A stretch of DNA of 64,000 nucleotides, from contig CAVUYS010000017.1 of NCBI GenBank assembly GCA_963745745.1, positions 17,734-81,733 of the forward strand. The letters are read 5' to 3'. Both the position numbers and the translations under genes were made by a program. The DNA is from an uncultured Spirochaetota bacterium (lineage in GTDB: Bacteria > Spirochaetota > Spirochaetia > SZUA-6 > DRHE01). The notes under the pieces are model-generated. The model ran no database searches. It was not told the origin of the DNA and saw only the letters and a program-made list of their open reading frames with translations. Shown in pieces: positions 5,777 to 40,610 of the stretch (positions are counted from its first letter, which is position 1; the number at the start of each line of letters is the position of its first letter).

Positions 5777-6190
5777 ATGGCGCTCAAGAGACCGCCGGTT
5801 CTCGCCGCCCTGGCGGCGTTCGTCATTGTTTCCGCGCTTCCCGCACAGGAGGGAGGCCTGACCCTGGAGCGGGCCGTGGAGCTCGCTTTGGCCGGGCATC
5901 CCGAGATCCGGGAAGCCCAGGCACGCATCGAGGCGGCGCGCGGCCGGACCCTCCAGTTCGCGTCCCGTCCCGAACCCCAGCTCACAGCCGGTCTCGAAGG
6001 CATCCCCCTGCCCGGCCTCAGAGAGGAAGGCGACGTGCTCGAGGTCCGCCTCGGGATCGAACAGGTTTTCGAGTATCCCGGCAAGCGCTCTCTCCGGACC
6101 GACATCGGCCGGAAAGGGGAGGATCTGGCCGGCGCCGAGCTCGACCGGGTCCGGTTGCTCCTCGCCGCCCGGGTGAAAACGACCCCCTCC
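5777..6190 (+). pseudogene. TolC-family outer-membrane efflux protein, N-terminal about 138 aa only (truncated fragment)
   Basis: Strong RBS gaggagga, then MALKRPPVLAALAAFVIVSALPAQEGGLTLERAVELALAGHPEIREAQARIEAARGR... (signal peptide plus first TolC repeat). The frame degenerates after ..LLLAARVK. Confidence 0.55.
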
Positions 6191-6471
6191 GCCTGGACGA
6201 TCCATCCCTGGGATTGGCGGCGCTGGCCGAGGTCGGACCGGGCGGCTGCTTCCTGGGTCACGACCACACCCTGGAGCATTTCCGCTGCCTGCTTCCCAGC
6301 GACGTGTTCCAGTCCACGGATTACGACCGCTGGGCGCGGGACGGCCGGAAGCAGGCCGTGCATCTGGCCCATGAGAAGGCCTTGAAGCTCATCGCCGCCT
6401 ACCAGCGGCCGCCGCTGGACGCGGAGTTGGAGGCCGAGATCGATGCATACGCGGAGGTCCACCGGCGATGA
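6190..6471 (+). pseudogene. MttB-family (trimethylamine methyltransferase superfamily) C-terminal remnant, about 93 aa, no start codon
   Basis: ENDPLRLDDPSLGLAALAEVGPGGCFLGHDHTLEHFRCLLPSDVFQSTDYDRWARDGRKQ... matches the C-terminal region of the two intact MttB paralogs in the window (..SSEHTARHFREGWQPTLFDRHHFEGW..). Confidence 0.55.
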
Positions 6472-13840: not shown

Positions 13841-13899
13841 AAAAATCCTCCCCCCCGCGCGCCCGGGGGGGAGGTAGGTTTCACCGCGCTCGCCGGCCG

Positions 13900-15468: not shown

Positions 15469-15549
15469 CGAACATCCTCCTTCGGTACTGACAATATAGG
15501 ACCCCTCGCTGCCCGTGTCAAAGAGACGATCCGTGTGCCCAGCGCGTTC

Positions 15550-15587: not shown

Positions 15588-16952
15588 ATGGACGGGCACC
15601 CGGACTCCAGGCCGCGCCTGCGCCTGTTGTCCCCCGAGCACAGCAGGCGCGTGCTGGAGGCCAGCTTCCGGATCCTGGCGGAAACCGGGGTCCTGGTGCG
15701 GGACGCTGAGGCCCTCCGGGCGCTGGCCGGGGCCGGCTGCGCCCAGGGCGCCGACGGGCGGGTGCGCTTCCCGCAGGTCAGGGTGCGTCGCGCCCTGGAA
15801 GGCATACCCCGCCGGCTGGTGCTGTTCGACCGCCACGGGAGGGCGGCGGTGGACACGGCCGACCGGGTTCCCCGCTTCGCCCTGGGCGCCAACTGCCTGC
15901 GCACCCTGGACTGGCGCACCGGCGAGCAGCGCTCCTCGACCCTGGCGGACATCCGCGAAACCGCGCGCCTGTGCGAAAAGCTGCCCAACCTCGAGCTGGC
16001 CGCCACCCTGGGCAACCCCAACGAGCTGCCCGCCCACGAGCAGGCCCTGGCCGCCGTGCGGGCCCTGGCTGAATACACGCGCAAGCCCCTGGTCTTCGCG
16101 GCCCACGACGAAGTGGAGGACGAAGCCATCTGGGGCTGGCTGGCCGGGCAGGCCGGCGGCTGGCAGGCCCTGGCCGACCGCCCCTTCGCCCTGGAGCTGA
16201 CCGGCCCCAGCTCGCCGCTCGAGCTGGGACAGGAGGCCTGCCGCCGCCTGGCCTTCACGGCGCGCCAGCGCCTGCCCGTAGTCTGCTACCCGGCGCTGCT
16301 GCCCGGCTTGAGCGGTCCGGTGACCCTGGAAGGGGCCCTGGCCCAGTCCACCGCGGAGATCCTGGCCGGCCTGGTGGTGCACCAGTTGGCCGGGCCAGGC
16401 TCCCCCGTGCTAACCGGCTCCTCGATCCTGCCCATGGACCTGAAGAGCGGCGGCATCGCCTACGGCTCCCCGGAATACGCCATGGCCGGTCTGGCTGCCG
16501 TGGACCTGTTCTCCGACCTGGGCATCCCCTCCTGGACCGGCGCGGGCTGCTCGGACGCGCACACCGTCGACGCCCAGGCCGCCGCCGAGGCAGGCATGAA
16601 CCTGCACCTGGCGGCGCTCTCGGGCACCGCCTTCATCCACAACCTGGGCTACCTTTCGGCCGGCAAGACCGGATCGCTGGAGATGCTGCTGCTCTGCGAC
16701 GAGCTGGCCGGCTCCGCCCGCCGCCTGGCCGCCGGCCTGACGGTGAGCGACGAGAACCTGGCCGTGGAAGCCAGCGGGCGGGCCGCCGCCGGGAGCTCGT
16801 TCCTGCTCGACGAGCACACCCTGGCCCACATGCGCTCCGCGATGTGGACCCCGGGGCTGTTCGAGCGCTCCGGTCTGGAAGACTGGCAGGGCCGGGGCTC
16901 ACCGGGCCTGCAGAAACGGCTGCGCGGGCGCTTGCGGGAGCTGCTGGGATGA
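15588..16952 (+). CDS. MttB-family methyltransferase (trimethylamine methyltransferase superfamily), non-pyrrolysine paralog 1
   Basis: 454 aa, uninterrupted (no in-frame TAG); ..LLSPEHSRRVLEASFRILAETGV.. N-terminus and ..SSFLLDEHTLAHMRSAMWTPGLFERS.. C-terminus typical of MttB/MtgB-like proteins. Confidence 0.85.
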   Translation: MDGHPDSRPRLRLLSPEHSRRVLEASFRILAETGVLVRDAEALRALAGAGCAQGADGRVRFPQVRVRRALEGIPRRLVLFDRHGRAAVDTADRVPRFALGANCLRTLDWRTGEQRSSTLADIRETARLCEKLPNLELAATLGNPNELPAHEQALAAVRALAEYTRKPLVFAAHDEVEDEAIWGWLAGQAGGWQALADRPFALELTGPSSPLELGQEACRRLAFTARQRLPVVCYPALLPGLSGPVTLEGALAQSTAEILAGLVVHQLAGPGSPVLTGSSILPMDLKSGGIAYGSPEYAMAGLAAVDLFSDLGIPSWTGAGCSDAHTVDAQAAAEAGMNLHLAALSGTAFIHNLGYLSAGKTGSLEMLLLCDELAGSARRLAAGLTVSDENLAVEASGRAAAGSSFLLDEHTLAHMRSAMWTPGLFERSGLEDWQGRGSPGLQKRLRGRLRELLG

Positions 16953-18139
16953 GCACAGCCCTGCTGGAAGAGGCGCGGGCTCTGCTTCCCGAGCTTACTG
17001 CGCTGCGCCGCGAGCTGCACCGCCATCCGGAACTCGGAGGCCAGGAGCGGCGCACCGCCGCGCTCATCGCCGAGCGTCTGAAACGTCTCGGCCTGCAGGT
17101 GCGCACGGGGGTGGCCGGCACGGGGGTGGTCGGCCTGCTGCAGGCCCGGCCCGGGGCGCCGCTGATCGCCCTGCGGGCCGATATCGACGCGCTGCCCGTC
17201 GAGGAGGCCAACGACGTTCCCTACCGCTCCACGGTGCCGGGGGTGTCCCACGCCTGCGGGCACGACGGCCATGCCGCTATTCAGCTCGGCGCGGCCGAGC
17301 TGCTCTGCCGCCACGCCGCGGAGTTGCCCGGCAACGTTCTGTTCCTGTTCCAGCCCAGCGAGGACACCCTGCCGGGGGGCGCTTTGGCCATGCTGCGGGA
17401 AGGAGTGCTGGAGGGCCGGCCGGTGCGGGCCGTGCTCTCCCTGCATCTGAATCCGCGCTTTCCGGCGGGAACGGTGGCCGTGAAGGAGGGCTGGGCCACC
17501 TGTTCCTCCCTCAGCTTTCGCTTGCGAATCACCGGCCGCGGCGGGCATGTGGCCGAGCCCGGGCAAACCGTCAACCCTTTGCTCCTGTCCGCCGCTCTCC
17601 TCACCGAGGCGGAAGCGTTACGCCGGGAGCTGGCCGGCGAGACCGAACCGCTGATCCTGGGGTTCGGCTCGGTGCACGGTGGGACCGCGGCCAACGTCAT
17701 CCCTGATTACGTGGAGGTTGCCGGCAGCCTGCGGGCCCCAACCCCCGAGCTGCTGCAGCTCTCCCTCGCGCGCTTTCAGAAGCTGGCCCGCGCGGTCACC
17801 GAACCGGCCGGGGCCCGCGTCGAGTTCCAGCTGGAGGAGGGCTACCCGCCGGTGTTCAATCATCCCGGCCTGACCGCGCGCTTCCGGGAGTCCGCCGCTG
17901 CGGTTGTCGGGACCGAACGCCTCGCCGCGCTGAAGCAGGTGCTGGCCACCGGCGACGACGTGGCCTATTTCCATCAGCGCGTCCCCGGCGTGTACTGGCA
18001 GCTGGGCTCCGGCGACCCCGCCCGGGGACTGGCCCACCCGCTGCACAGCCCGCGTTTCGACTTTGGCGATGAGCTTCTCGCTTTGGGCGCCGCCGTGCAG
18101 GCCCGGGCAGCCGGGGAGCTGCTGGCCGGGGAGCCCTGA
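16949..18139 (+). CDS. M20-family amidohydrolase (peptidase M20D, N-acyl-amino-acid amidohydrolase / hippurate hydrolase-like)
   Basis: ATGA overlap with the upstream stop; ..RRELHRHPELGGQERRTAALIAERL.., HACGHDGH metal site, 397 aa from MSTALLEEA. Confidence 0.8.
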   Translation: MSTALLEEARALLPELTALRRELHRHPELGGQERRTAALIAERLKRLGLQVRTGVAGTGVVGLLQARPGAPLIALRADIDALPVEEANDVPYRSTVPGVSHACGHDGHAAIQLGAAELLCRHAAELPGNVLFLFQPSEDTLPGGALAMLREGVLEGRPVRAVLSLHLNPRFPAGTVAVKEGWATCSSLSFRLRITGRGGHVAEPGQTVNPLLLSAALLTEAEALRRELAGETEPLILGFGSVHGGTAANVIPDYVEVAGSLRAPTPELLQLSLARFQKLARAVTEPAGARVEFQLEEGYPPVFNHPGLTARFRESAAAVVGTERLAALKQVLATGDDVAYFHQRVPGVYWQLGSGDPARGLAHPLHSPRFDFGDELLALGAAVQARAAGELLAGEP

Positions 18140-18157
18140 GCCGCGGGCCCACTGGAG

Positions 18158-19561
18158 TTGAGCATGGCACTTCGATTCGATTATCTGGACCCCGAGCAGC
18201 AGCGCCGCCTGCACGAGGCCAGCCTGGAGATCCTGGAGCGCGTCGGCGTCTGCCTGCAGGACGAGGAGTCCGTCCGGCTGCTGCGCGCCGCCGGAGCGAA
18301 GGTGGACGAGGGCGGCCGGGTGCGCCTGCCGCCCAAGCGGGTGGAGTGGGCCCTGGCTACGGCCCCCAGGAGCATCGGGCTCTGCGACCGGGAAGGAAGG
18401 CCGAGGCTGCCCCTGGAAAAGGGCAGGGTTTTTTTTGGCCCCGGTTCAGATTGTCTCTACCTCCTGGATCACCGCACCGGCGAGCGCCGGCTTCCCACCC
18501 GGCGCGACCTGGAAGAGGCGGTGCGGTTGTGTGACGGCCTGCCGAACATCGATTTCCTCATGTCCGCGTTTCTCCCGGCGGATGTCGAACCGCAGCAGGC
18601 CAACCGCCTGCAGATGCGGGCCATGCTGGAAGGCAGCAGCAAACCCATCCTGTTCGTGACCAACGACCTGGAGTCCTGCCGGGACGTGCTGCGGGCGGCG
18701 GAGGCGGTGGCCGGCGGGGAGCGGGCCCTGTCCGCAAGTCCCTCCTGCGCCTGCTACATCAACGTCACCGCCCCGCTGCGTCACAATGCCGACTCCCTCC
18801 AGAAGCTGCGCCTGCTGGCGAGCAAGGGCATCCCCACCACCTACACCCCCATGGTCCTGCGGGGGGTCAACGGCCCGGTGACCAGCGCGGGAGCCACCGC
18901 CCTGGCCAACGCCGGGGAGTTGGTGGGGCTGCTGCTGGCCCAGCTGGTCCGGGAAGGGGCGCCGGTCATCCACAGCGGGGGGTACGTCGACGTCTTCGAC
19001 ATGCTGACCATGCAGGACGCCTACTGCGGGCCGGAAAGCTACGGAAGCCGCACCTCCCTGGCCGCCTGGTACGGCCTGCCCTCCTTCGGCCTGGGCGGGG
19101 CCAGCGATTCCAAGCTGCCCGACGAGCAGGCGACGGCCGAGGCGGCCCTCACCCTGCTGATGGAGGGCCTGGCCGGGGTGAACCTGGTCCACGACCTGGG
19201 ATACCTGGAGAGCGGCAAGTGCTGCTCCCTGCAGATGCTGGCCATCTGCGACGAGCTGGCGGGCTGGGTCCGCCATTTCCTGCGCGGCAGCGAAGTGAGC
19301 CCGGAGACGCTGGCCCTGGACCTGATCGCCGAGCTGGGCCCGGAGGGGGACTACCTGTCCAGCGAGCACACCGCGCGGCACTTCCGGGAAGGATGGCAGC
19401 CCACCCTGTTCGACCGCCACCACTTCGAAGGCTGGACGGCGGCCGGAGGAAAGAGCCTGGCCCAACGGGCCCGCGAGCGGGTGGAGGAAATCCTGAGCGC
19501 CCCCGCGCCGGTGCCTCTGCCCCCGGAATCGCGGCGCAGGATCGCGGAGATCCTCGGCTGA
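18158..19561 (+). CDS. MttB-family methyltransferase, non-pyrrolysine paralog 2
   Basis: 467 aa uninterrupted; MSMALRFDYLDPEQQRRLHEASLEILERVGV...SSEHTARHFREGWQPTLFDRHHFEGW. Confidence 0.85.
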   Translation: MSMALRFDYLDPEQQRRLHEASLEILERVGVCLQDEESVRLLRAAGAKVDEGGRVRLPPKRVEWALATAPRSIGLCDREGRPRLPLEKGRVFFGPGSDCLYLLDHRTGERRLPTRRDLEEAVRLCDGLPNIDFLMSAFLPADVEPQQANRLQMRAMLEGSSKPILFVTNDLESCRDVLRAAEAVAGGERALSASPSCACYINVTAPLRHNADSLQKLRLLASKGIPTTYTPMVLRGVNGPVTSAGATALANAGELVGLLLAQLVREGAPVIHSGGYVDVFDMLTMQDAYCGPESYGSRTSLAAWYGLPSFGLGGASDSKLPDEQATAEAALTLLMEGLAGVNLVHDLGYLESGKCCSLQMLAICDELAGWVRHFLRGSEVSPETLALDLIAELGPEGDYLSSEHTARHFREGWQPTLFDRHHFEGWTAAGGKSLAQRARERVEEILSAPAPVPLPPESRRRIAEILG

Positions 19562-19587
19562 AACCGGCCGGCCGTTCTCAGCCAGCG

Positions 19588-19628
19588 GCATCCGGCGGTT
19601 TGACATCCGCCGGATGCATATATATACT
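19588..19628 (+). promoter_or_regulatory. Perfect 11-bp-stem hairpin (gcatccggcgg-tttgacat-ccgccggatgc) whose loop carries a TTGACA -35; TATACT -10 lies 17 nt downstream. Terminator/operator overlapping the promoter of the amino-acid ABC operon
   Basis: Read directly. AT-rich island between mttB paralog 2 and the ABC permease. Confidence 0.4.
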
Positions 19629-20504
19629 GCCGATGACTACCGAACGAATCAACATTCGATGAAAAAGCCAGGCGATGCGGCAAGCAGGGGCGGGCAGGGC
19701 CGGTCCTCGCGGCGGCAGCACTTCCTCCTGCTGCGCTCCCCAGCCCGGGATATCCTCCAGTTCGTTCTCCTGGTCGCCATCCTGATCTGGCTCCTGTTCC
19801 TGGGCGCCTCCCGCTCCGGCTACCGCTGGGAGTGGTACCGGGTTCCCCGCTACATCCTGGGCGTGGCCGAGGGCCGTCTGGTCGCGGGGCCCCTGCTGCA
19901 GGGGCTGGGGCTGACCCTGCGGATATCCGGAATCAGCCTGGTCCTGGCCTTCCTCATCGGCCTGGGCACCGCCCTGCTGCGGCTTTCAGACTCGCTGGTC
20001 GGCCGGGCGGTGGCCCGCGCCTACCTGGAATTGATCCGCAACACCCCGATGCTGGTGCAGCTGTTCGTGATCTACTTCATCCTGGGACCGATCCTCGGCA
20101 TCGAAAGGTTCCTCTCCGCGGTGCTGGCCTTGAGCCTGTTCGAGGGGGCCTACGCTTCCGAGGTGTTTCGGGCCGGCATCGTCTCGATCCAGAAGGGCCA
20201 GTGGCAGGCCTGCTACAGCCTGGGCCTGGGCGCGGTGGACACCTACCGCTTCGTGATCCTGCCGCAGGCCATCCGCCGCATCCTGCCGCCGCTCACCAGC
20301 CAGGCCGTGTCGCTGATCAAGGACTCCTCGCTGGTGAGCCTGGTGTCGCTGACCGACCTGACCCTGCAGGCCGGCATCGTGGTCTCCGAAACTTTCCTCC
20401 CCTTCGAGATCTGGTTCACCACCGCCGGACTGTACCTGTTGATCACGGTCAGCCTGTCCACGGTCGTGAGCAGGATGGAGCAGCGCTTCAAGATAGCGGG
20501 ATGA
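19614..20504 (+). CDS. Polar amino-acid ABC transporter permease (His/Gln/Glu/opine type); true start possibly M at 19659
   Basis: ..IRNTPMLVQLFVIYFILGP.. and EAA-like loop ..ACYSLGLGAVDTYRFVILPQAIRRILPPL.. Confidence 0.75.
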   Translation: MHIYTADDYRTNQHSMKKPGDAASRGGQGRSSRRQHFLLLRSPARDILQFVLLVAILIWLLFLGASRSGYRWEWYRVPRYILGVAEGRLVAGPLLQGLGLTLRISGISLVLAFLIGLGTALLRLSDSLVGRAVARAYLELIRNTPMLVQLFVIYFILGPILGIERFLSAVLALSLFEGAYASEVFRAGIVSIQKGQWQACYSLGLGAVDTYRFVILPQAIRRILPPLTSQAVSLIKDSSLVSLVSLTDLTLQAGIVVSETFLPFEIWFTTAGLYLLITVSLSTVVSRMEQRFKIAG

Positions 20505-20508
20505 GAAC

Positions 20509-21262
<754 letters not shown>

Positions 21263-21280
21263 AGGAAGAGGGAGGAAGAG

Positions 21281-22085
21281 ATGAGGAAAGCATGGGTTCT
21301 GGCGGTGATCGCGCTGGTCGCGATCGCTGGACTCGTCGGGGCGCAGGCCAAGGACAGCTTGATCGACGAGATCGCCAAGCGCGGCGTTCTGAAAGTCGGG
21401 GTGGACGTGTTCGTGCCCTGGGTCTTCAAGGACAAGACCGGCAACCTGGTCGGCTTCGAGATCGACGTGGCCAAGCGGCTGGCCCAGGAGATGGGCGTGA
21501 AGCCTGGAGTTCGTGGAGACCAAGTGGTCGGGCATCATCCCCGCCCTGCTCACCAACAAGTTCGACGTGATCATCGGCGGCATGGGCTCCACCACCGAGC
21601 GCAGCCTCAAGGTCAACTTCACCATTCCGTACGACTACTCCGGCATGTCCATCTGCGCCAACAAGAAGATGGCCCCGGGCTGGACCAGGCTGGAGGACTT
21701 CAACAAACCCAACGTCATCCTGACCGTGCGCACCGGCGCCACCCCCGTGGCCGCGGCCAAGAAGTTCATGCCCAAGGCGCAGGTGCGCCAGTTCGACGAC
21801 GAGGCCCAGGCCTACCAGGAAGTGGTCAACGGGCGCGCCCACGCCTGCGTATCCTCGCAGCCGGGGCCCGAGAACTGGGTCAACGAACACCCGGACGTGC
21901 TGTACCTGCCCTTGAGCGGCAAGACCTTCACCAAGGAGCCCATCGCCTTCGCATTGCGCAAAGGCGACCCGGAAGCGATCATCTTCTTCAACAACTGGAT
22001 CACCCGCATGGAGTGGGAAGGCTGGCTGGAGGAGCGTCACCAGTACTGGTTCACCGGCAACGAGTGGAAAAAACTCACCCAGTAG
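21281..22085 (+). CDS. Amino-acid ABC substrate-binding protein, family 3; frameshift near 21505
   Basis: Signal peptide MRKAWVLAVIALVAIAGLVGA, ..LKVGVDVFVPWVFKDKTGNLVGFEIDVAKRLA.., continuing ..TKWSGIIPALLTNKFDVIIGGMGSTTERS.. in ORF 21513-22085. Confidence 0.7.
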
Positions 22086-22099
22086 GAAGACTGCCTGAA

Positions 22100-22131
22100 C
22101 CGTCCGCCCCGAACGGGGGCGGGCGGTTTTT
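22100..22131 (+). terminator. Rho-independent terminator (ccgtccgcccc gaac gggggcgggcgg + TTTTT)
   Basis: Read directly, just after the SBP stop at 22085. Confidence 0.5.
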
Positions 22132-22141
22132 GGAGCCATAG

Positions 22142-23023
22142 GTGATCGGCCAAAGGGTCCGCTTCCGCTGGCTGGACGCGCTGATCATCGCGTTGCTGGC
22201 GGGCTTCGCCGCGTTCATCGGCTACCGGGTCACGGTGGGCCTGAACTACAAATGGCACTGGGCCTCGATTCCCCAGTACCTCGTGTTCCGGCACCCGGAC
22301 ACCGGCCGCTGGGCGGCCAACTACATCCTGCAGGGCCTGTTCACCACCCTGCGGCTTTCCCTCTGGGCCACCATCCTGGCCACCCTGATCGGGATCGTGC
22401 TGGGTGTGTTCCGCACCACCAGGAGCCTCTTTCTGCGGATGGTCGGGCGCACCTACGTGGAGATCATCCGCAACCTGCCGCCCCTGGTGCTGGTGTTCAT
22501 CTTCTATTTCTTCGTGGCCGACCAGCTCATGCCGCTGCTGGGCCTGGAGCCCCTGGTGCGCGCCCTCTCCCCGCGGACCCAGGCGGTGCTGGGGGCGCTG
22601 TTCGCCCCGGTGTCCCGCTTCACCCAGTTCATCTCCGCGGTGGTCACCATCGCGGTGTTCGAGGGCGCCTACATCACCGAGATCATCCGGGCGGGCATCG
22701 AGAGCGTGGAGCGCGGCCAGCGCGAGGCGGCTTACGCCCTGGGCCTGTCCTGGCTGGACCAGATGCGCCTGGTCATCCTGCCCCAGGCCATCAAGCGCAT
22801 CCTGCCGGCCCTGGCCGGGCAGTTCATCAGCACCATCAAGGACTCGGCCATCGTGGCCGCCATCTCCATCCAGGAGCTCACCTACCAGGGCATGCAGCTG
22901 GCCGTGAGCACCCACTTCACCTTCGAGGTCTGGCTCATGGTGGCCGTGCTGTACCTGGTGCTGACCCTGACCCTGTCCCTCGGAGTCAGCCGCCTGGAAA
23001 AGAAACTGCGCCAGAGCGACTAG
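22142..23023 (+). CDS. Polar amino-acid ABC transporter permease (second permease of the operon), GTG start
   Basis: ..IRNLPPLVLVFIFYFFVAD.. and ..AAYALGLSWLDQMRLVILPQAIKRILPAL..; 293 aa. Confidence 0.8.
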   Translation: MIGQRVRFRWLDALIIALLAGFAAFIGYRVTVGLNYKWHWASIPQYLVFRHPDTGRWAANYILQGLFTTLRLSLWATILATLIGIVLGVFRTTRSLFLRMVGRTYVEIIRNLPPLVLVFIFYFFVADQLMPLLGLEPLVRALSPRTQAVLGALFAPVSRFTQFISAVVTIAVFEGAYITEIIRAGIESVERGQREAAYALGLSWLDQMRLVILPQAIKRILPALAGQFISTIKDSAIVAAISIQELTYQGMQLAVSTHFTFEVWLMVAVLYLVLTLTLSLGVSRLEKKLRQSD

Positions 23024-31906: not shown

Positions 31907-31939
31907 CCCGGCGCCGGCCTTCCGGCGTTTGCCACGCCG

Positions 31940-31968
31940 GCCGCGGGCGGGTATAATCCGGCCCATCA
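31940..31968 (+). promoter_or_regulatory. Strong sigma70 promoter TTGCCA-17-TATAAT; the ATG of the downstream ORF lies about 10 nt after the -10 (leaderless or near-leaderless mRNA)
   Basis: Read directly. Preceded by a short hairpin cgccgg-cctt-ccggcg after the kinase stop. Confidence 0.5.
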
Positions 31969-31978
31969 TGGCCCGCAG

Positions 31979-33098
31979 CATCGAAGTCCTCCGCGTCTCC
32001 GAACGAAGCCCGCAGGAAAAAGAGTTCATCGCCTTCCCCAAGCGCCTGTACCGGGGCTGCCCGCAGTGGGTGCCCTGGTTCGACCTGGACATGCGGATGA
32101 TGCTTCGCCGCAGGCATCCCTACTTCCGTCAGGCCTCCGGGGATTTCTTCCTGGTCCGCGAAAACGGCCGCACCCTGGGGCGGGCCTGCGTGGTGAAAAA
32201 TCCCAGCTACATCGCCCAGCACAAGACCGCCTGCGCCCAGTTCTACTTCTTCGACGTGGAGGAAGACCCGCCGGCGGCCGAGGCCCTGCTGCGGCGCCTG
32301 CAGGAATGGGCCCGGGGGCAGGGGCTGGGGCTCCTGCGGGGCCCCATGCTGCTGGGCGGGGCCTCGGGCAGCGGCATCCTGGTCCAGGGCTTCGAGCACC
32401 GGGCGGCCATGACCATGATGCCCTACAACTACCCCTACTACCCGCGCCTGCTGGAGGAGCTGGGGTTCCGCAAGCACGTGGACCTGTACTCCATGGACCT
32501 GCCGCCGGACAAATTCCGCCTGCCGGAGCGTGTGCGGGCGGCGGCCGGGAAGGTGCTGGCCCGGGGACGCTTCCGCGTGCTGGAGTTCCGCAGCAAGCGC
32601 GACTTGAGGAAGGTGGCCGACCGCATCGCCGGGCTGTACAACGCGACCCTGGCCGACCACCTGGAGGACTACCCCCTGAGCGACGCGGAGCTGGAGCAGT
32701 CCAAGAAGGATCTGCTGGTCATTGCCGACCCCCGCCTGGTCAAGATCCTGGCCTATGACGGGCAGATCGTCGGGTACCTGTTCGGCTTCCCGGACCTTTC
32801 CCGCGCGCTGCAGAAGAACGCCGGCCGCCTGGGCCCCCTCCAGCTGCTGCGCCTGCTCTCGGCGATCCGTTCCAACGACGAGCTGATCCTGAACGGCATG
32901 GGCATCCTGCCCCAATACCAGCGCCTGGGAGGCAATGCCCTGCTGTACCACGAGCTGGAAAAGTCCGCCGCCGGCGGGAGCTTCCGCCGGGCCGAGCTGG
33001 TGCAGGTCTCGGAGCGCACCGAGCTGATGCTGCGCGACATCCAGACCCTGGGTGGCCGCATCTGCAAGGTGCACCGCATGTACGAGAAGGAGTGCTGA
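31979..33098 (+). CDS. Hypothetical protein, about 373 aa, possibly GNAT-fold acyltransferase-like
   Basis: Uninterrupted ORF from MARSIEVLRV with coding-like GC3. No confident family assignment from sequence alone. Confidence 0.45.
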
Positions 33099-33179
33099 GA
33101 GGCGGCCCCTGGACAGACGGCCCGGGGCATGCTATAGTTCCCGCATAGCGAGACGCCGTTTCGCATAGAGAAACCTGGC

Positions 33180-33948
33180 ATGCCGGTCCTATCTTCGGTC
33201 TCCAAAGCCCTGACCCTCCTGGACGCCTTCACCGCCGAGAAGCCGGAGCTCACCCTCACCGAGCTGGCCCGCCAGGCCGGGGCCCACAAGTCCTCCGCCT
33301 TCCGCCTGTTGAGCCACCCTGGAAGCCCACGGCTTCGTGGAGAAGAGCCCCTCCGGAAGGGGCTACCGCCTGGGCTGGAAGCCCCTGGAGCTTTCCGGCC
33401 GCCTGCTGGGCCGCTACGAGCTGCGCGAGCTGGCCGCCCCCCACATGGAGGAGCTGGCCCAGAAGAGCGGGGAGATCGTGCACCTGTCCATCCTGGACGG
33501 GGCGGAAATCGTGTACCTGGACAAGCGCGGGCGCAGCCAGCCGCTGACCGTCTCCACGACCGTCGGCGGGCGCAGCCCGGCCCACGCCTCGGCCATGGGC
33601 AAGGTGCTGCTGGCCGGCCTGCCGCCCGCGGAAGTGCTGCGCCTGCTGGGCGGCCGGCCCCTGAGGCGCTTCACCCCCACCACCATCACGGACCGGCGCC
33701 GCCTGGGCCGCGAGCTGGAAGCCATCCGGCGCCAGGGCTTCGCCCTGGACAACGAGGAAGCCTTCCCCGGCATCCGCTGCGTGGCCGCCCCCCTGCGCGG
33801 GCGCGCAGGGCGGGTGCTGGCCGCCCTGAGCCTGACCGTGCCCGCCCAGCGCATGGGCGCGCGCCGGCAGGCCGAGCTGAAAGACTGGGTCACGGACACC
33901 GCCGCCCGGATTTCCGACCGGATCCGGGCGGGCGGAATCGACGCATAG
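33180..33948 (+). CDS. IclR-family transcriptional regulator; frameshift near 33318
   Basis: HTH part MPVLSSVSKALTLLDAFTAEKPELTLTELARQAGAHKSSAFRLL, then (other frame) ..LEAHGFVEKSPSGRGYRLGWKPLEL.. and the IclR effector domain (..GIRCVAAPL..). Confidence 0.75.
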
Positions 33949-33969
33949 ACGAGCCAAAGGAGAAACGAA

Positions 33970-34608
33970 TGTCGGTACAGGAACTGCAGCAGGCAGTGGA
34001 GGCCGGGGACAAGGACCGCGCCACGGCGCTGGCCCGGGACCTGCTGGGCAAGGGCACGGACGGCCCTGAAGATCATCGAGTCCCTCACCCAGCTGATGAG
34101 CGTGGTCGGCGAGAAGTTCTCCCGCCTGGAGATCTTCCTGCCGGAGATGATGATGGCCGGCGCGGCCATGTCCGCGGTGGTGGAGCTGCTGGGCCCGCAG
34201 CTGAAAGCCAGCAAACAGGGCCAGCCCAAGGGCAGGATCGTGCTGGGCACCGTGATGGGCGACCTGCACGAGATCGGCAAGAACATCGTCAAGCTGATGC
34301 TGGAGACCCAGTTCTTCGAGGTGAAGGACCTGGGGGTCAACGTGGACGCGGTCGTCTTCATCAAGGAGGCCGAGGCCATGGGCGCCAACCTGATCGGCGC
34401 CTCCTCCCTGATGACCACCACCATGCCCCACCAGAAGGAGATCGTGAACCTCCTGAAAGACAAGGGGCTGCGCGCCAAGTACAAGGTCGTGGTCGGCGGG
34501 GCGCCCGTGAACCAGAAATGGGCCGAGGAGATCGGCGCGGACCTGTACAGCCCGGACGCGGGAACCGCCCCGCGGATGATCGGCGAGCTGCTGAAGGAGA
34601 AAGCATAA
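33970..34608 (+). CDS. Corrinoid (B12)-binding methyltransferase partner protein (B12-binding_2 cap + B12-binding Rossmann domain); frameshift near 34060
   Basis: MSVQELQQAVEAGDKDRATALARDLL (cap), then ..RIVLGTVMGDLHEIGKNIV.. (DxHxxG B12 motif), ..GASSLMTTTM.., ..KVVVGGAP.. Confidence 0.75.
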   Translation, partial: CRYRNCSRQWRPGTRTAPRRWPGTCWARARTALKIIESLTQLMSVVGEKFSRLEIFLPEMMMAGAAMSAVVELLGPQLKASKQGQPKGRIVLGTVMGDLHEIGKNIVKLMLETQFFEVKDLGVNVDAVVFIKEAEAMGANLIGASSLMTTTMPHQKEIVNLLKDKGLRAKYKVVVGGAPVNQKWAEEIGADLYSPDAGTAPRMIGELLKEKA

Positions 34609-35990
34609 TGTCCAGTCCATATCGCTTGTGGGAGATCCAGGAACGCTCCAACACCGGTCCGTTCTGCGAGGAGAACGACTTCCTGCCCAAGCTCTTCACC
34701 CCGAAGCTGAAGGAAGTCATCAAGAAGTACCAGATCAAGTACGACCCGAAAAACCCCGTCCCCTCGGACGACGCGCTGGCCGACCGGGTGTGGCAGGCCG
34801 GCTGGGAGCTGTACCGCGAGGTGGGGCTGTACAACACCGACACCCACCGCATCATCAAGGTCAGCGACCAGGAAATCAAGGAAGCCCTGTACATGCACCC
34901 GGGCCAGTACTGGGTGGGGGCGGGCAAGGACGCCGTGCTGTGGAAGCACCGCCAGGTGGAGGACCGCAAGACCCCCTTCGCCCTGTTCAGCCCGGACTGC
35001 ACCTGCTCCGAGGAGCTGCACTACTCCATGTGCCTGGCCTACCTGAAAGAGCCGCTGCTGGACGGGTTCTGCGCCCCGATCCTGGAGGAATCCATGGGGC
35101 AGAAGATCGCCTCCGCCTCCCCCTTCGAGATCAACGGCTGCACGCAGCACATCTACAACCTGCGCCTGGCGGCCAAGCAGGTCGGGCGGCCGGGGACCTT
35201 CTTCGTGGCCGTGGGCACCGCCGAGCACGACAGCGGGCAGATCGCCGTTTCCAACAACGAGTGGGGCGTGCGCACGACGGACGCCAGGATCATCGGCACC
35301 CTGACCGAGTTCAAGACCGCCAACACCCTGCTCAACCGCGTGGTGCACTGCGCCCAGTACGGCTGCTACGCCGGCAACCTCACCGGGGCCATCTACGGCG
35401 GCTGGTGCGGAGGCTCGGAAGGGGTGGCCGTGGCCACCGTGGCCTACTCCCTGAACGGCCTGCTGGCCTACGGGGCGATCTTCAACCAGCACTTCCCCTT
35501 CCACCTGAACTGGGGCTCCAACACCACCCGCGAGCTGCTGTGGCCCATCGCCGTGGCCGGCCAGGCCCTGTCGCGCAACTCCAAGCTGCTGTACACCTCC
35601 AACGGCTTCTCCAACGCCGGGCCCATGACCGAGATGGTGTTCTACGAGACCGCCTGCCACGCCCTGGTGAGCGTGGTGAGCGGCTGGGACCTGTGGGAGA
35701 TGGCCTCGGCGCGCAACAAGCACCGCAACCGGGCCACCCCGCTGGAGGCCCGCCTGGGCATGGAGGTCGGGCACGCCGTGGCCCGCCAGGGCATGACCCG
35801 GGCCCAGGCCAACGAGATCGCCAACCGCATCCTGGCCAAGTACGAGCAGCGGGCCGCGGACGCGCCGATCGGCAGCCGAGTACCAGGACTGCTACCACGT
35901 GGCCACGGCCCTGCCCACCCAGGAGCACCTGGACATGTACCGCCGGGTCAAGGACGAGCTGGCCGGCATGGGGATCCAGTTCCCCTACTG
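34609..35990 (+). CDS. Monomethylamine-methyltransferase (MtmB)-like protein, non-pyrrolysine homolog; frameshift near 35877
   Basis: ..GLYNTDTHRIIKVSDQEI.. (cf. MtmB GIYCTDTHRIVKYTEDEI) and ..HLNWGSNTTRELLWPIAVAG.. (cf. WGSTNTRETLMIAG). The region aligning to the Pyl site of MtmB reads GRPGTFFVAVGTAEHDSGQ with no in-frame TAG. The C-terminal 40 aa are in a shifted frame and end ..GMGIQFPY*. Confidence 0.7.
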
Positions 35991-36002
35991 ACGGGAAGCG
36001 CC

Positions 36003-37890
36003 ATGAGCCGGCTGTTGAGCGGAAACCAGGCCATCGCCTACGCCGCCCTGGAGGAGGGCGTGGCCCTGGTCACCGGTTACCCCGGCACGCCTTCCACGGA
36101 GGCCCTGACCGAGATCGAGCACCTGGCCCGCCGGGGCGAGCCCGCCCCGTACGTGGAGTGGAGCGTGAACGAGAAGGTGGCCTTCGAGCTGGGCGCCGGG
36201 GCCGCCTGGGCCGGCCAGCGCGCGCTGGTGACCATGAAGATGTCGGGGGCCAACGTGGCCCTCGACGCCTTGATCGGGGTGGCCCACTCCGGGGTGAACG
36301 GCGGCCTGGTGGTGTACGTGGCCGACGACCCGGGGGTCGAGGCGGGGATGCCCGAGCAGGACTCCCGCCTGCTGGCCCAGCTCTGCGGGCTGCCTCTGCT
36401 GGATCCCGCGGACCCGGCGTCGGCCTACCGCCTCACCCGCTACGCCTTCGGCCTCTCGGAGCGCACCGGGCTGCCCGTGCTCCTGCGCTCCGTGACCTCG
36501 GTGGCCCACGCCCGCTCTCCCGTGGACTCCACCCGGCGCTGGCGGCCGCTGGACCGTCCGGCCTCCTTCAGCCGCGACATCAGCCGCTACACCAAGGCCG
36601 GTTCGGCCATCTGCCTCGCGCAGCACCGGGAAAACCTGGCCCGCCTGGCGATGGCGGAAGAGGCCTTCCGCTCCGACGGGATCAACGTCTTGTCGCCGGG
36701 CGGCCCCTCGGACGGCGACCGGATCGGGGTGATCGGCGCGGGGGCGGTGATCGCCGGCCTGGCCGAGGCCCTGGAGGAGCGGGAGGCCGCCGGGCAGACG
36801 GTGCCGGCCGGCCTGTTCCTGGAGGGGGTCCTGCCGCTGGAGGAGGGCAAGGTGCGCGAGCTGCTGGCCTCCTGCGGCAGCCTGACCGTGTTCGAGGAGC
36901 TGGAGCCCGTGGTGGAGCGCGAGGTGCGCGGCCTGGCCACGCGCCTGGGCTGGCAGGGGCGCATCCTGGGCAAGATGGACGGCGTGCTCCCGCGCGTGGG
37001 GCGCTACACGCGGCGCGAGATCCTGGCCGGGCTGGCGGCGCTGGATGGCAAGGCCACCACCGCCACCACCGCGGCAACGCCGGAAGCCCCGCCGGTGAAG
37101 CACCCCATCACCTTCTGCGCCGGCTGCCCGCACCGCGGCACCTACCTGGCCCTGAACCGGGCCCTGAAGGCCCTGAAGCTGCCCAAGGAAGAGGTCGTGG
37201 TCACCGGGGACATCGGCTGCACGATCCTGGGCATGAACGCCCCCTTCAGCTCCTGCTGGACGGAGCTGGCCATGGGCTCCAGCCTGGGCCTGGCCCAGGG
37301 CTTCCAGCGGGCCGGCCTGAAGGGGCCGCTGGTGGCCACCATCGGGGACTCCACCTTCTTCCACGCCGGCCTGCCGGCGCTGGTGAACGCGGTGCAGCAC
37401 GACACCCCCCTGGTGCTGGTCATCCTGGACAACGGCTGGACCAGCATGACCGGCTTCCAGGCCAACCCCGGCACGGCCCCCGCGCTGCAGGCCGCCGGCA
37501 GCCGCCGGGTCTCGATCGAGGCCGTGGTGCGGGCCATGGGCGTGGACTTCCTGGAGCGGATGGATCCCTTCGACCAGCCGGCGGCCATCGAGGTGATGAA
37601 GCGGGCCCTCGCGGCCGAAGGGGTGCGGGTGGTGCTGGCCGAGCGGGAATGCGCCCTCACCGTGGCGCGCCGCGAGCCGGAAAGGGAGCTGTACCGCATC
37701 GATGCGGGAAAATGCACCTTCTGCCGGGCCTGCCTGCGCGAGACCGGCTGCCCGGCCCTGAACATGACCCGCAGCGGGCCAGGGCGATGCGGGCAAGGAG
37801 CACATGGCCATCGACGAGGAGCTTTGCACCGGCTGCGGCCTGTGCGCGACCTGCTGCAAGTTCGACGCCATCCACGAGGTGGGGGCATGA
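36003..37890 (+). CDS. iorA: Indolepyruvate:ferredoxin oxidoreductase alpha subunit (TPP- and 2x[4Fe-4S]-containing); frameshift near 37780
   Basis: MSRLLSGNQAIAYAALEEGVALVTGYPGTPSTE N-terminus typical of IorA; TPP region GDIGCTILG..GDSTFFH; CTFCRACLRETGCPA and (other frame) ..IDEELCTGCGLCATCCKFDAIHEVGA* ferredoxin motifs. Confidence 0.8.
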
Positions 37891-38474
37891 ACATCCTGAT
37901 CACCGGGGTCGGCGGGCAGGGCACGGTCACCCTGGGGGACCTGATCGCCGAGCGGGCCGCGGACCTGGGGCTGCCGGTCTCGGTGTTCCACTCCCGCGGC
38001 ATGGCCCACCGCGGCGGCCGCGTGGCCGGGGAGATCCGCATCGCCTCCCGGCCCGGCCAGCGCCTGGCCGCCCGCCTGTCCCCCGGCGGGGCGGACGTGC
38101 TGGTCGGCATGGAAGTCGGGGAGACGATCAACTCCCTGCCCTTCCTGCGCGAGGGAGGGGTGGCTTTGCTGATCGACTACCGTTACGTGCCCTCCGAGTC
38201 GGCGCTCAAGAAGGAGGCCTACCCGGATCTGCAGAAGGCGGTCGAGCTGTTCTCGCGCCGCACCCCGCGCGTCTTCGCCGTGGTGCGCCCGCCGGCGCCC
38301 GTGAACCTGTTCGCCCTGGGCTGCCTGAGCGCGGCGCTGCCGGAGGAAATGGACCCCCAGGGGATCTTCGACCCGCAGGGGCTGGAGGAAACCATCCGCG
38401 GTTTCCTGAAAAAGAACACGGCAGCGAACCTCGAAGTCTTCCGCCGGGGACGCCAGCATGCCAGCCGGGGTTAA
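37887..38474 (+). CDS. iorB: Indolepyruvate:ferredoxin oxidoreductase beta subunit
   Basis: ATGA overlap with iorA; MNILITGVGGQGTVTLGDLIAERA... 196 aa, typical IorB. Confidence 0.8.
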   Translation: MNILITGVGGQGTVTLGDLIAERAADLGLPVSVFHSRGMAHRGGRVAGEIRIASRPGQRLAARLSPGGADVLVGMEVGETINSLPFLREGGVALLIDYRYVPSESALKKEAYPDLQKAVELFSRRTPRVFAVVRPPAPVNLFALGCLSAALPEEMDPQGIFDPQGLEETIRGFLKKNTAANLEVFRRGRQHASRG

Positions 38475-40560
38475 GCGGGCGCTGGACCGCCTGTTTTACC
38501 CGCGGACCGTGGCCGTTTTCGGTTCGGTCAAGGAAGGCAAGATCGCCCACCAGATCGTCACCCAGATGGTGCGGGCGGGCTACGCCGGCCGCCTGGTGGC
38601 GGTGAATCCCAAGGCCGATTCTCCCGATGGCTTTCCCCAGGTGGCGGCCTTCGCCGGCGCGCGTTCGATTGGAGGCATCGACCTGGCCGTGCTGGCGCTG
38701 CCTGCCCAGTTCGCCGAGGACGCCGTGCGCGAGGCCGGCGCCGCCGGGGCGCCGGTGGCCGTGGTGATCACCTCCGGCTTCGCCGAGGCGGGAAACGCGG
38801 AAGGCGAGCGGCGCCTCCTGGCGGCGGCCCGGGAGGCCGGCGTGCGCCTGATCGGGCCCAACTGCGCGGGCATCATGAACACGGCCAACCGCCTGTCGGC
38901 CAGCATCGAGCCGCGGGCCCTGCCGGGGCGGGTGTCCTTCCTCACCCAGAGCGGGGCGGTGGGCGGCGCCGTGCTGGGCCTGGCCGCTGAGCGCGGCATC
39001 GGCTTCGCCAAGTTCGTGAGCTACGGCAACCGGGCCGACCTGGGCGAGCCGGAGCTGCTGGAATACCTGGCCGCGGACCCGGAGACCGGGGTGATCGCCC
39101 TGTACCTGGAATCCGTGGCCGACGGTCAGCGCCTGCTGCCGGTCCTGGCCGCGGCGGCGGCGGCCAAGCCCGTGGTGGCCATCAAGGCCGGGCGCACGAC
39201 CGCCGGGCGGCGCGCGGCCGGCTCGCACACCGGCTCCCTGGCCGGCGCCGACGAGGTGTTCGCCGCCGCCTTCCGCCGGGCCGGGGTGATCCGCGCCGCG
39301 GGCGTGGAGGAGATGCTGGACCTCTGCGACGCCTTCGCCCACCTCCCCGTCCCCGCCGGGCGGAAGGTGGCCATCGTGACCAACTCCGGAGGACCGGGGA
39401 TCCTGGCGGCCGACCGCGCCGAGGAGCTGGGCCTGGAGCCGGCCGAGCCGTCCCCGGAGCTGCGGGCCGGGCTGCGCAGCTTCCTTTCCGAGCGCTGCGC
39501 CCTGGGCAATCCCGTGGACCTGACCGTGGAAGGCACGGGCGCCAACTACGAGCGGGTCCTGCGCCTGCTGCTGGAAGGCGGCTATGACGCGGCCATCGCC
39601 GTCAACGTGGCCACCCCCTTCCTGGACTCGCTGGAGCTGGCCCGCGGGGTGATCGCCGCGCGCGACGCGGTGCCCGGCAAGCCGATCGCCGCCGTGTTCG
39701 CGGCGGGCCAGGTGGTGGCCGAGGCCGTGGGACTGCTGCAGCGGGCCGGCATCCCCTGTTTCCCCAGCGGGGAGCGCGCGGCCCTGGCCCTGGCCCGCCT
39801 GCGCGAGCGCCAGGAGCTGCGGGCCGCCGCGCGGCGCGCGCCGCGAGGGCCGCTCCCCGATCCGCGCCCACTGCCCTGGCCTTCACCGCCGACGGAGCCG
39901 GCCGGCGGCCCCGTCCCCGAGCCGGAGGGCTGGGCGTTCCTCGGCGGGCTGGGCCTGCCGCTGCCCGCCTACCGCTGGTGCCGCACGGCGGAGGAAGCGG
40001 CCCAGGCCTGCGGACAGCTGCCCTCTCCCCTGGTGCTGAAGGTCGTCTCCGCCCAGGTCGTGCACAAGAGCGAGCGGGGCGGGGTCATGCTGAACCTGCA
40101 GGATGCGGCCGCGGTGGGCCGGGCTTTCGCCGAGCTGGCCGGGCGTTTCGCCGGCTCCTCCTTCCGCGGGGGGCTGCTGGCCGAACAGGTGGCCGGCGGC
40201 CTGGAGGTGATCGTCGGCCTCAAGCGCGACCCTTCCTTCGGTCCCGTGATCCTGGCCGGCCTGGGCGGGGTGTGGACCGAGCTGCTGCACGATGCGGCGG
40301 TGCGGCTGGCCCCGGTGGACGAGGCGGAGGCGCTGGAAATGCTGGACGGCCTGAAGTCCGCCCCGCTCCTGAGCGGCTACCGCGGCTCCCCGCCGCGCGA
40401 CCGGCGGGCCCTGGCCGCGCTGATCGCCCGGGTTTCCCTGCTGGCCGTGGAGTACCCGGACATCGCTGAGTTGGACCTGAACCCGGTGCTGGTGCTTCCG
40501 GAAGGCCGGGGCGCCCGCATCGTCGACGTGCGGCTGGTGGCAGGCGAAGCGGTGCGCTGA
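38458..40560 (+). CDS. ADP-forming acyl-CoA synthetase (acetate--CoA ligase [ADP-forming] family: CoA-binding + succinyl-CoA-synthetase-like + ATP-grasp domains)
   Basis: ..FYPRTVAVFGSVKEGKIAHQI.., ..GPNCAGIMN.., ..SQSGAVGG.., C-terminal ATP-grasp ..LVLKVVSAQVVHKSERGGVMLNL..; 700 aa. Confidence 0.8.
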   Translation: MPAGVKRALDRLFYPRTVAVFGSVKEGKIAHQIVTQMVRAGYAGRLVAVNPKADSPDGFPQVAAFAGARSIGGIDLAVLALPAQFAEDAVREAGAAGAPVAVVITSGFAEAGNAEGERRLLAAAREAGVRLIGPNCAGIMNTANRLSASIEPRALPGRVSFLTQSGAVGGAVLGLAAERGIGFAKFVSYGNRADLGEPELLEYLAADPETGVIALYLESVADGQRLLPVLAAAAAAKPVVAIKAGRTTAGRRAAGSHTGSLAGADEVFAAAFRRAGVIRAAGVEEMLDLCDAFAHLPVPAGRKVAIVTNSGGPGILAADRAEELGLEPAEPSPELRAGLRSFLSERCALGNPVDLTVEGTGANYERVLRLLLEGGYDAAIAVNVATPFLDSLELARGVIAARDAVPGKPIAAVFAAGQVVAEAVGLLQRAGIPCFPSGERAALALARLRERQELRAAARRAPRGPLPDPRPLPWPSPPTEPAGGPVPEPEGWAFLGGLGLPLPAYRWCRTAEEAAQACGQLPSPLVLKVVSAQVVHKSERGGVMLNLQDAAAVGRAFAELAGRFAGSSFRGGLLAEQVAGGLEVIVGLKRDPSFGPVILAGLGGVWTELLHDAAVRLAPVDEAEALEMLDGLKSAPLLSGYRGSPPRDRRALAALIARVSLLAVEYPDIAELDLNPVLVLPEGRGARIVDVRLVAGEAVR

Positions 40561-40579: not shown

Positions 40580-40610
40580 TTGACAGGCAAGTATTTTCTT
40601 GCCTATATTC
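40580..40610 (+). promoter_or_regulatory. Promoter TTGACA-18-TATATT with embedded inverted repeat ggcaag-tatttt-cttgcc (likely ArsR autoregulatory operator)
   Basis: Read directly, 2 nt upstream of the ArsR ATG at 40612. Confidence 0.45.

Follow-up and report, generated by a model that had tools for sequence, protein, structure and literature searches.

Within a 64,000-nt stretch of contig CAVUYS010000017.1 (positions 17,734 to 81,733 of the forward strand, G+C content about 70%; hereafter the window) from an uncultured Spirochaetota bacterium, we distinguished a compact unit on the + strand (33180-40560). It encodes an IclR-family regulator, a corrinoid protein, a homolog of the monomethylamine methyltransferase MtmB that lacks pyrrolysine (Pyl), the IorA- and IorB-type subunits of an oxidoreductase of the indolepyruvate:ferredoxin oxidoreductase (IOR) type, and an ADP-forming acyl-CoA synthetase (ACD). 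We put at roughly 50% the probability that this is a functional operon of the Spirochaetota genome in which the MtmB homolog demethylates an N-methylated amino acid, the product being fed to transamination, IOR and ACD.

The coordinates and domain calls given here for the IclR regulator, the corrinoid protein, the MtmB homolog and IorA refer to conceptually repaired open reading frames (ORFs), from which one base was removed per frameshift. The match of the MtmB homolog to PF05369 (307 bits, cut-off 25) extends from position 4 to position 449 of the 450-position profile. The conserved blocks NTDTHRII and WGSNTTRE, on which the original prediction had relied, are present in the protein, as is GTFFVAVG. 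In a phmmer alignment with MtmB of Methanosarcina barkeri (PDB 1L2Q, E=6e-56), Pyl202 (X) stands opposite Val200 (codon 35205-35207), within the sequence GRPGTFFVAVG; the protein had thus been correctly taken for a non-pyrrolysine member of the family. This Val is invariant in 46 family members, and the in-frame UAG codon for pyrrolysine that marks a true MtmB is absent. The GRPG motif just before the pyrrolysine position is conserved in both proteins.

Two intact 460-amino-acid (aa) proteins are nearly identical to the MtmB homolog: P0001 (97%) and the one encoded by locus L086 (98%). The AlphaFold2 model of P0001 (pLDDT 83, pTM 0.88) found 1TV2, 1L2Q and 1NTH as its top Foldseek matches (TM 0.87-0.88, E=2e-37). 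It was used for the secondary-structure positions of signature residues. Val200 lies in barrel strand 198-203 of the model, equivalent to Pyl202, which in MtmB is anchored to a barrel strand (PMC9842639). The likeness to M. barkeri MtmB (1L2Q, 1NTH, 1TV2) comprises PF05369 from end to end, a TIM barrel at TM 0.87 and an MtmC-like corrinoid partner. However, identity in the structural alignment is only 26%, and the homolog is bacterial, lies outside any methanogenesis context and has amino-acid catabolic neighbours.

Membership of the MtmB family and the MtmB fold could also indicate a true monomethylamine methyltransferase that works without pyrrolysine, and trace monomethylamine activity has been observed for MtqB, an archaeal Pyl-free relative described below (PMC13044021). 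We find this barely credible, since the activation of monomethylamine is considered to require pyrrolysine (PMC9842639, PMC13044021) and the genes occur in the context of amino-acid transporters, aminotransferases and oxoacid oxidation, not of ammonium or methylamine uptake.

For comparison, loci from species-representative genomes and from metagenomes, 80 of each, were annotated with tblastn, Pfam, NCBIfam and ORF clustering. Wherever at least 900 nt of upstream sequence was available, the gene directly preceding the MtmB homolog encodes a corrinoid protein (140 of 140 loci). In the window its product has the B12-binding cap, the Rossmann domain and the DxHxxG motif (DLHEIG, 34261-34278) that are expected of the partner of a corrinoid-charging methyltransferase (MT1) in the adjacent gene; it scores 182 bits against TIGR02370, under the cut-off of 215. 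Translational coupling of the two genes had been proposed and is consistent with the TAATG shared by the corrinoid stop and the MtmB start in the window, but it does not extend to relatives: the junction in L086 is 18 nt longer, and the spacer elsewhere is roughly 20-50 nt.

The remaining products have the domains typical of their families. The regulator combines HTH_IclR with an IclR_C effector domain, IorA carries POR_N, a TPP domain and two ferredoxin-type Cys motifs, IorB consists of a POR domain, and the ACD shows the fused architecture CoA_binding, Succ_CoA_lig, Ligase_CoA and ATP-grasp_5. The identities and order of the genes from IclR to ACD, as first read from the DNA, were thus confirmed with Pfam, and so was the short distance between MtmB and IorA, which amounts to 11 nt from stop to ATG. 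IorA and IorB overlap by 4 nt, and IorB and ACD by 17 nt. Two sigma-70-like sites were detected between 32900 and 41000, against 0.2 expected by chance; they bracket the unit, one being upstream of IclR (33110-33138) and the other just beyond the ACD stop (40580-40609). The gene spacing and the restriction of promoter-like sites to the ends are consistent with a single transcription unit. An IclR operator-type inverted repeat was sought upstream of IclR and of the corrinoid gene and was not found in either place.

In the proposed pathway, the MtmB homolog would act as MT1 and transfer the N-methyl group of an amino-acid-type compound to the product of the preceding gene, the corrinoid protein in its Co(I) state. 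The methyl group would then be passed on, presumably to tetrahydrofolate (THF), by a methyl-corrinoid:THF methyltransferase (MT2) encoded outside the unit. The demethylated product, a free alpha-amino acid, would be converted to a 2-oxoacid by an aminotransferase, which is encoded in the cluster in most relatives and would here lie outside the window. The IOR-type enzyme would oxidize the 2-oxoacid to acyl-CoA with reduction of ferredoxin, and the ACD would turn acyl-CoA into the free acid and ATP. A 2-hydroxyacid dehydrogenase, where present, might serve as a redox valve, and IclR probably activates the unit when it senses the substrate or an intermediate. Demethylation that yields an amino acid is the simplest reading because the co-encoded enzymes take a free alpha-amino acid to the 2-oxoacid, acyl-CoA, and acid plus ATP. 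If this is true, the methyl group enters C1 metabolism, while the carbon skeleton yields ATP through IOR and ACD.

The loci fall into two context types, which are also separated on the MtmB tree. IclR-type loci come mostly from Spirochaetota, with one Aminicenantes metagenome-assembled genome (MAG) and one MAG labelled Desulfobacterales. The other, non-IclR type is mostly from Desulfobacterales. Conservation of the neighbourhood, named in the original prediction as a test of the tie between the Ior genes and the methyltransferase pair, speaks for that tie in the IclR-type branch. Of its 23 loci with at least 8 kb of flank, 18 carry IorA/B, 15 ACD and 19 an aminotransferase, and 21 carry one or more of the three; seven of the 23 encode a D-2-hydroxyacid dehydrogenase. 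Comparably flanked non-IclR loci have IorA in 1/60 and a HisC-type aminotransferase in 1/60 cases.

In the IclR-type branch, linkage persists through at least five gene orders. L006 has IclR-AT-Corr-MtmB-IorA-IorB-ACD (AT, aminotransferase; Corr, corrinoid protein), with all genes in one direction and -35 to 48 nt between them. In L010, L012, L013 and L014, ACD-IorB-IorA(-AT) is divergent from IclR-Corr-MtmB; L017 and L029 resemble them, except that the aminotransferase gene is located between IclR and Corr. The order is IclR-AT-IorA-IorB-Corr-MtmB in L028, and in L032, the Aminicenantes MAG, Corr-MtmB-AT faces ACD-IorB-IorA. The window, L086 and L003-L005 share IclR-Corr-MtmB-IorA-IorB-ACD, with the aminotransferase gene absent.

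With 300-337 bits, the aminotransferase whose gene separates IclR from the corrinoid gene exceeds the hisC equivalog cut-off of 277, and its third-best PDB match is a putative phenylalanine aminotransferase (4R2N). Cluster aminotransferases of the relatives are mostly of the HisC/phenylalanine type, and some are AspC-like. Enzymes of the HisC family are known to serve as aromatic aminotransferases as well. The anticipated aminotransferase gene was thus located in the cluster of relatives (the 19 loci above), but not in the 64-kb window itself. In L006 the MtmB homolog is the sole methyltransferase, no MttB homolog being found within 10 kb; a single demethylation must then give a transaminable compound, which argues for an N-monomethyl amino acid as substrate.

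Instead, an ordinary fermentation operon for aromatic or other amino acids (IclR, aminotransferase, Ior and ACD) might by chance have come to adjoin a corrinoid-MtmB pair with an unrelated role in C1 or nitrogen metabolism. Most family members, those of the Desulfobacterales types, do lack the linkage, and a second IorAB pair in L017 shows that these genes also occur independently. However, the pair is located inside the operon, between IclR or the aminotransferase gene and IorA in the window, L006 and L086, and after IorB in L028. The linkage also withstands rearrangements and divergence of IorA down to about 42-58% identity, and it recurs in the Aminicenantes MAG. We therefore consider chance adjacency quite improbable.

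A word-indexed search returned 535 homologs of the MtmB protein; the best 120 of these 535 are 416-471 aa long (nearly all 460) and 70-97% identical to it. The clade spans at least five phyla: Spirochaetota, Desulfobacterota, Aminicenantes, Gemmatimonadota and Myxococcota. Conservation of the MtmB homolog far exceeds that of its neighbours: between L006 and the window, identity is 85% for MtmB, 64% for the corrinoid protein, 57% for IclR, 58% for IorA, 49% for IorB and 52% for ACD. Among 1.84 billion protein representatives clustered at 50% identity, the clade forms one cluster, represented by a 54%-identical Aminicenantes-type protein, and all other matches are at most 39% identical. The superfamily is large, with 124 of 150 representatives among the matches listed having at least 430 aa, and they differ in the residue that occupies the pyrrolysine position. 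NCBIfam gave no name for the MtmB homolog and only generic, below-cut-off matches for the MttB homologs of the window, so neither offers a clue to the substrate. The 54%-identical sister clade adjoins genes for an OCD/mu-crystallin enzyme, an MFS transporter and a PALP enzyme, that is, amino-acid chemistry.

Residues invariant in the clade and rare (<10%) in the others are N76, S128, D130, H181, F198, E206-H207-D208, W219, R227, Y263, W266, N336, M340, W360, W363 and R375. In the P0001 model most of them are situated at the C-terminal ends of barrel strands or in the following loops, the usual active-site face, which suggests that the clade has a pocket of its own. With acidic, basic and aromatic residues side by side, such a pocket might accommodate a zwitterionic ligand.

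Pyl-free MtmB relatives, although on record for years, have rarely been assigned a role. The first with a demonstrated function is MtqB of Methanococcoides methylutens Q3c, which together with MtqC demethylates tetramethylammonium and choline (Kashyap et al. 2026, Front Microbiol, March 2026, PMC13044021). Its authors call the remaining non-Pyl MtmB homologs "of unknown function", and the role of another one, expressed by a dichloromethane-fermenting Peptococcaceae strain, is likewise unknown (PMC9768040). MtqB/MtqC resembles the pair described here in that a Pyl-free MT1 of the MtmB family is combined with a cognate corrinoid protein, and it shows that the family has moved beyond monomethylamine. 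It differs in that it is archaeal, feeds methyl-CoM formation, uses quaternary amines and has no reported linkage to an aminotransferase, Ior or ACD (PMC13044021). Identity of MtqB to the clade is presumably at most 39%, as inferred from the representative search.

This precedent, the sole non-Pyl MtmB of known function (PMC13044021), raises the alternative that the MtmB homolog is a quaternary-amine methyltransferase acting on an amino-acid betaine, choline or a similar compound. Its dimethyl product would be demethylated further by MttB homologs or an MtmB paralog before transamination, or Ior and ACD would act on something else. MttB homologs adjoin the MtmB homolog in 43/60 non-IclR and 11/23 IclR-type loci, and two are encoded in the window, 15-19 kb upstream. 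Desulfobacterales orthologs are accompanied by MttB homologs and sometimes by a 38-42%-identical MtmB paralog with its own corrinoid protein (L002/L033, L018, L020), which looks like a stepwise betaine chain; L002/L033, with three MT1 genes (an MttB homolog, the MtmB paralog and the ortholog) and two corrinoid genes in one locus, has what a three-step chain would be expected to have. Against this, several IclR-type loci, among them L006, L010 and L028, have no MttB homolog within reach, and there the ortholog is the only methyltransferase beside the aminotransferase, Ior and ACD. The clade is also at most 39% identical to any cluster outside its own, MtqB being presumed no closer, and it has invariant pocket residues of its own, including E206-H207-D208, R227 and R375. 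On balance we regard a quaternary-amine substrate as somewhat unlikely.

Several observations nevertheless weigh against demethylation of an N-methyl amino acid followed by oxidation. No aminotransferase gene was identified in the 64-kb window, nor in the cluster of L003-L005 and L086-L090. Desulfobacterales orthologs with 72-83% identity occur without Ior, ACD or a HisC-type aminotransferase within 10 kb; their loci carry MttB homologs, URO-D/MtaA-like genes, GntR, CobW and molybdopterin oxidoreductase, and would fit a betaine-type demethylation chain equally well. The linkage counts are not phylogenetically independent. No MT2 or reductive activase was identified in 33180-40560, although either may lie elsewhere in the genome, and the URO-D/MtaA-like MT2 candidate has no counterpart in the 64-kb window at E<=1e-4. 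IorA (544 bits against TIGR03336 IOR_alpha, cut-off 651), IorB (at most 78 bits against IorB equivalog models, cut-offs about 237) and ACD (408 bits against the acetate-specific TIGR02717, cut-off 567) all score under the NCBIfam equivalog cut-offs, so that the 2-oxoacid specificity is not fixed; "aromatic" is here a family label, and an aromatic substrate is presumed from it. To our knowledge, the characterised Pyl-free members of the MtmB and MttB families (MtqB; MtgB, MtpB, MtcB and MtyB) all act on quaternary amines (partly PMC13044021). Such amines need no pyrrolysine because of their fixed charge (PMC13044021 and general knowledge), and a secondary amine would be a new substrate class for Pyl-free enzymes.

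An attractive way to reconcile these observations is that the MtmB homolog may perform the last step, from monomethyl to free amine, of a betaine demethylation chain. It is possible, though on the doubtful side, that the whole clade represents the first pyrrolysine-independent corrinoid methyltransferase acting on a secondary amine, an N-monomethyl-alpha-amino acid. It would then be part of a widespread anaerobic demethylation-plus-oxidation pathway of Spirochaetota from sediment and soil, and of Desulfobacterota with other downstream enzymes. If so, Pyl-free methylamine methyltransferase chemistry would extend beyond quaternary amines, and the turnover of methylated amines in sediments would become connected with amino-acid fermentation as well as with C1 or acetogenic metabolism. 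In any case, a large and unusually conserved clade of at least five phyla gains a testable genomic hypothesis. Intact template sequences are available in L086, P0001 and L005, and a cultured carrier exists, Desulfocicer vacuolatum DSM 3385 (L056), whose ortholog is 74% identical.

The components of the unit are all of known kinds; their coupling has not been previously described. The statement in the original prediction that no such pathway was on record agrees with our literature search, which found no description of the clade, the cluster or the pathway, and no paper joining monomethylamine methyltransferase, indolepyruvate and corrinoid. Closest in bacterial physiology are the non-Pyl MttB systems, in which MtgB acts on glycine betaine, MtpB on proline betaine, MtcB on carnitine and MtyB on gamma-butyrobetaine (see also PMC6855144, PMC13080624). 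They share with the proposed system an anaerobic bacterial MT1, a corrinoid protein and a methyl-corrinoid:THF MT2, and homologs are encoded in the window and at many loci; however, they belong to family PF06253 and all use quaternary amines, and what they release by demethylation is excreted or processed elsewhere, with no co-encoded branch for oxoacid oxidation.

A module of aromatic aminotransferase, indolepyruvate:ferredoxin oxidoreductase and ADP-forming acyl-CoA synthetase operates in Thermococcales and other anaerobes (work of Mai, Adams and Schönheit). The same trio, with matching domain architectures and the same route from 2-oxoacid through acyl-CoA to acid plus ATP, is found here, but it is joined in one operon with a corrinoid methyltransferase pair, and its IorA, IorB and ACD are below the equivalog cut-offs. 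The proposed net chemistry, from N-methyl amino acid to free amino acid, is also that of the oxidative demethylases N-methyltryptophan oxidase (SolA/MTOX) and sarcosine oxidase or dehydrogenase. These flavoenzymes depend on O2 or an electron acceptor, yield formaldehyde or methylene-THF, and are unrelated in sequence and mechanism; the system described here would be their anaerobic, corrinoid-based counterpart.

As assembled, the IclR, corrinoid, MtmB and IorA ORFs each contain a +1 frameshift (frame 0 to +1), and in all four cases the lesion is one extra C. Removal of one base per site gives proteins that match Pfam models and homologs (for MtmB, of 460 aa) from end to end. The sequence beyond each lesion is fully conserved, with no stop codons and no further damage. 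L086 (Ga0299912_10008873), which is 96.7% identical to the window at the DNA level over 6.1 kb, lacks exactly these four bases, as do the more distant relatives L003, L004 and L005. Single C or G insertions also split a DUF4432 gene (near 41700; two sites about 30 nt apart), the molybdopterin oxidoreductase gene (near 6560), and the ATPase and solute-binding protein genes of an ATP-binding cassette (ABC) transporter (Table 1); an epimerase gene and a PAP2-like gene at 3.3-5.3 kb probably carry single-base insertions too, at several sites. All frameshifts inspected in the window are single inserted C or G residues, none is a deletion, and the long genes 9988-12985 and 57462-64000 are free of them. 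The closest genome match, L003 ("contig_60251" of uncultured Spirochaetota MFD00709.bin.3.160), is a long-read-style MAG with private frameshifts in IclR and ACD, whereas the genes are intact in the short-read assemblies L004 and L005.

Because L086 lacks the four bases, the same type of insertion breaks unrelated genes of the window, and L003 has private frameshifts while its short-read relatives are intact, the four extra C residues are likely a sequencing or assembly error and not decay, and the operon was treated as intact. An interrupted MtmB-like ORF, which according to the original prediction would speak against it, is thus formally present in the assembly, but the evidence above points to a sequencing error. 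Were the four frameshifts real mutations, the cluster would be a recently inactivated array of pseudogenes in this genome. Their density, four in 4.5 kb (33315-37779) of a 7.4-kb unit, is somewhat higher than a rough estimate for the rest of the window. This explanation is nonetheless very unlikely, given lesions of one kind only, conserved sequence downstream of each, their absence from L086, at least four unrelated window genes broken in the same manner and the private frameshifts of L003.

The window-wide pattern suggests that the method of sequencing or assembly systematically inserted bases, and ORF-based readings of this DNA should expect split genes. Programmed frameshifting was dismissed, as the sites have no slippery motif in common and are absent from near-identical DNA. 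Deletions in minus-strand genes, suggested by a GC3-Viterbi reading, were rejected, as pairs of nearby single-base insertions were seen instead. A frameshift in the MttB gene 15588-16952, indicated by tblastn with L003, is more likely an error of L003, since the window ORF matches the profile from 2 to 444 in one frame.

A block upstream (15588..23023, +) encodes MttB homologs, an amidohydrolase and a polar-amino-acid ABC transporter, and is possibly associated with the unit as genomic context. It is located 11-18 kb upstream in the window and directly upstream of IclR in the close relative L001/L003, and many loci have MttB and SBP_bac_3 transporter genes close to the MtmB homolog. Features of the operon and of this block are summarized in Table 1.

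Table 1. Predicted features of the operon and of the upstream block (window coordinates).
Feature	Position	Strand	Remarks
Non-Pyl MttB homolog	15588-16952	+	
M20 amidohydrolase	about 16950-18139	+	
Non-Pyl MttB homolog	18158-19561	+	
Polar-amino-acid ABC transporter permease	19614-20504	+	
ABC transporter ATPase	20509-21262	+	frameshift near 20866
ABC transporter binding protein	21281-22085	+	frameshift near 21502
ABC transporter permease	22142-23023	+	
Promoter-like site	33110..33138	+	TGGACA-17-TATAGT with TG extension; upstream of IclR; sigma-70-like site scan
IclR-family regulator	33180..33948	+	255 aa repaired; HTH_IclR E=2e-18, IclR_C E=1e-50; extra C at 33315, frame lost after residue 45
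Corrinoid protein, MtmC/MtbC/MtgC type	33969..34608	+	212 aa repaired; B12-binding_2 and B12-binding; extra C at 34061, frame lost after about residue 31
Non-pyrrolysine MtmB-family methyltransferase	34608..35991	+	460 aa repaired; PF05369 E=3e-91; extra C at 35877, frame lost after residue 423
IorA-type subunit, two-subunit 2-oxoacid:ferredoxin oxidoreductase	36003..37890	+	628 aa repaired; POR_N, TPP_enzyme_C, Fer4; extra C at 37779, before second ferredoxin-type Cys motif
IorB-type subunit	37887..38474	+	195 aa, intact; PF01558 POR E=5e-20
Fused alpha-beta NDP-forming acyl-CoA synthetase (ACD)	38458..40560	+	700 aa, intact; CoA_binding_2, Succ_CoA_lig, Ligase_CoA_2, ATP-grasp_5

Besides the MttB homologs noted above, genes counted in the 60 non-IclR loci are those for an SBP_bac_3 polar-amino-acid ABC transporter (35 loci), molybdopterin oxidoreductase (31), a URO-D/MtaA-like protein (24) and GntR (24). 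The molybdopterin oxidoreductase homologs are located within 10 kb of the MtmB homolog, often directly downstream. In the window, a cytoplasmic Fdh-alpha/DMSO-reductase-family molybdopterin oxidoreductase (6468-8655, +) follows the C-terminal remnant of an MttB homolog (6187-6453, +; profile 402-492 only).

In 22 loci of the Desulfobacterales type (e.g. L068, 11235-12077), a conserved ORF of about 250 aa with a C-terminal Cys-rich motif, which has no match in Pfam or NCBIfam, is present immediately downstream of the MtmB homolog, and URO-D/MtaA-like and CobW genes come next. The second non-Pyl MtmB paralog (34-42% identical), with its own corrinoid protein, is often encoded only a few kb from the ortholog and was seen in L002/L033 (5499-11383), L011, L018, L020, L027 and L032.

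Directly upstream of IclR in the window there is a 402-aa ORF (31890-33098, +) with a weak GNAT acetyltransferase match. It keeps this position in L003 and L004 and may or may not be part of the unit. L086 carries an insert of about 420 nt at the IorB/ACD junction (about 6130-6580), apparently a small HicA-like toxin gene and a partner ORF, which is absent from the window.

A dipeptide/oligopeptide-type ABC transporter (9987-15471, -), composed of an SBP_bac_5-like binding protein, two permeases and a double ATPase, is encoded beside a PrpD/MmgE-family gene (8626-9987); this type of transporter recurs near the MtmB homolog in the Spirochaete-type loci L007, L009, L011, L017 and L105-L110. An unusual fusion of an ABC-transporter ATPase-like N-terminal domain with a PAS/HisKA/HATPase histidine kinase (30032-31906, +) directly follows a sigma-54-type response regulator (28714-30069). 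The region 52433-63998 (-) contains very large ORFs, one of more than 2,170 aa extending past the window end, with repeats that resemble RTX (hemolysin-type) calcium-binding repeats and are unrelated to the operon.

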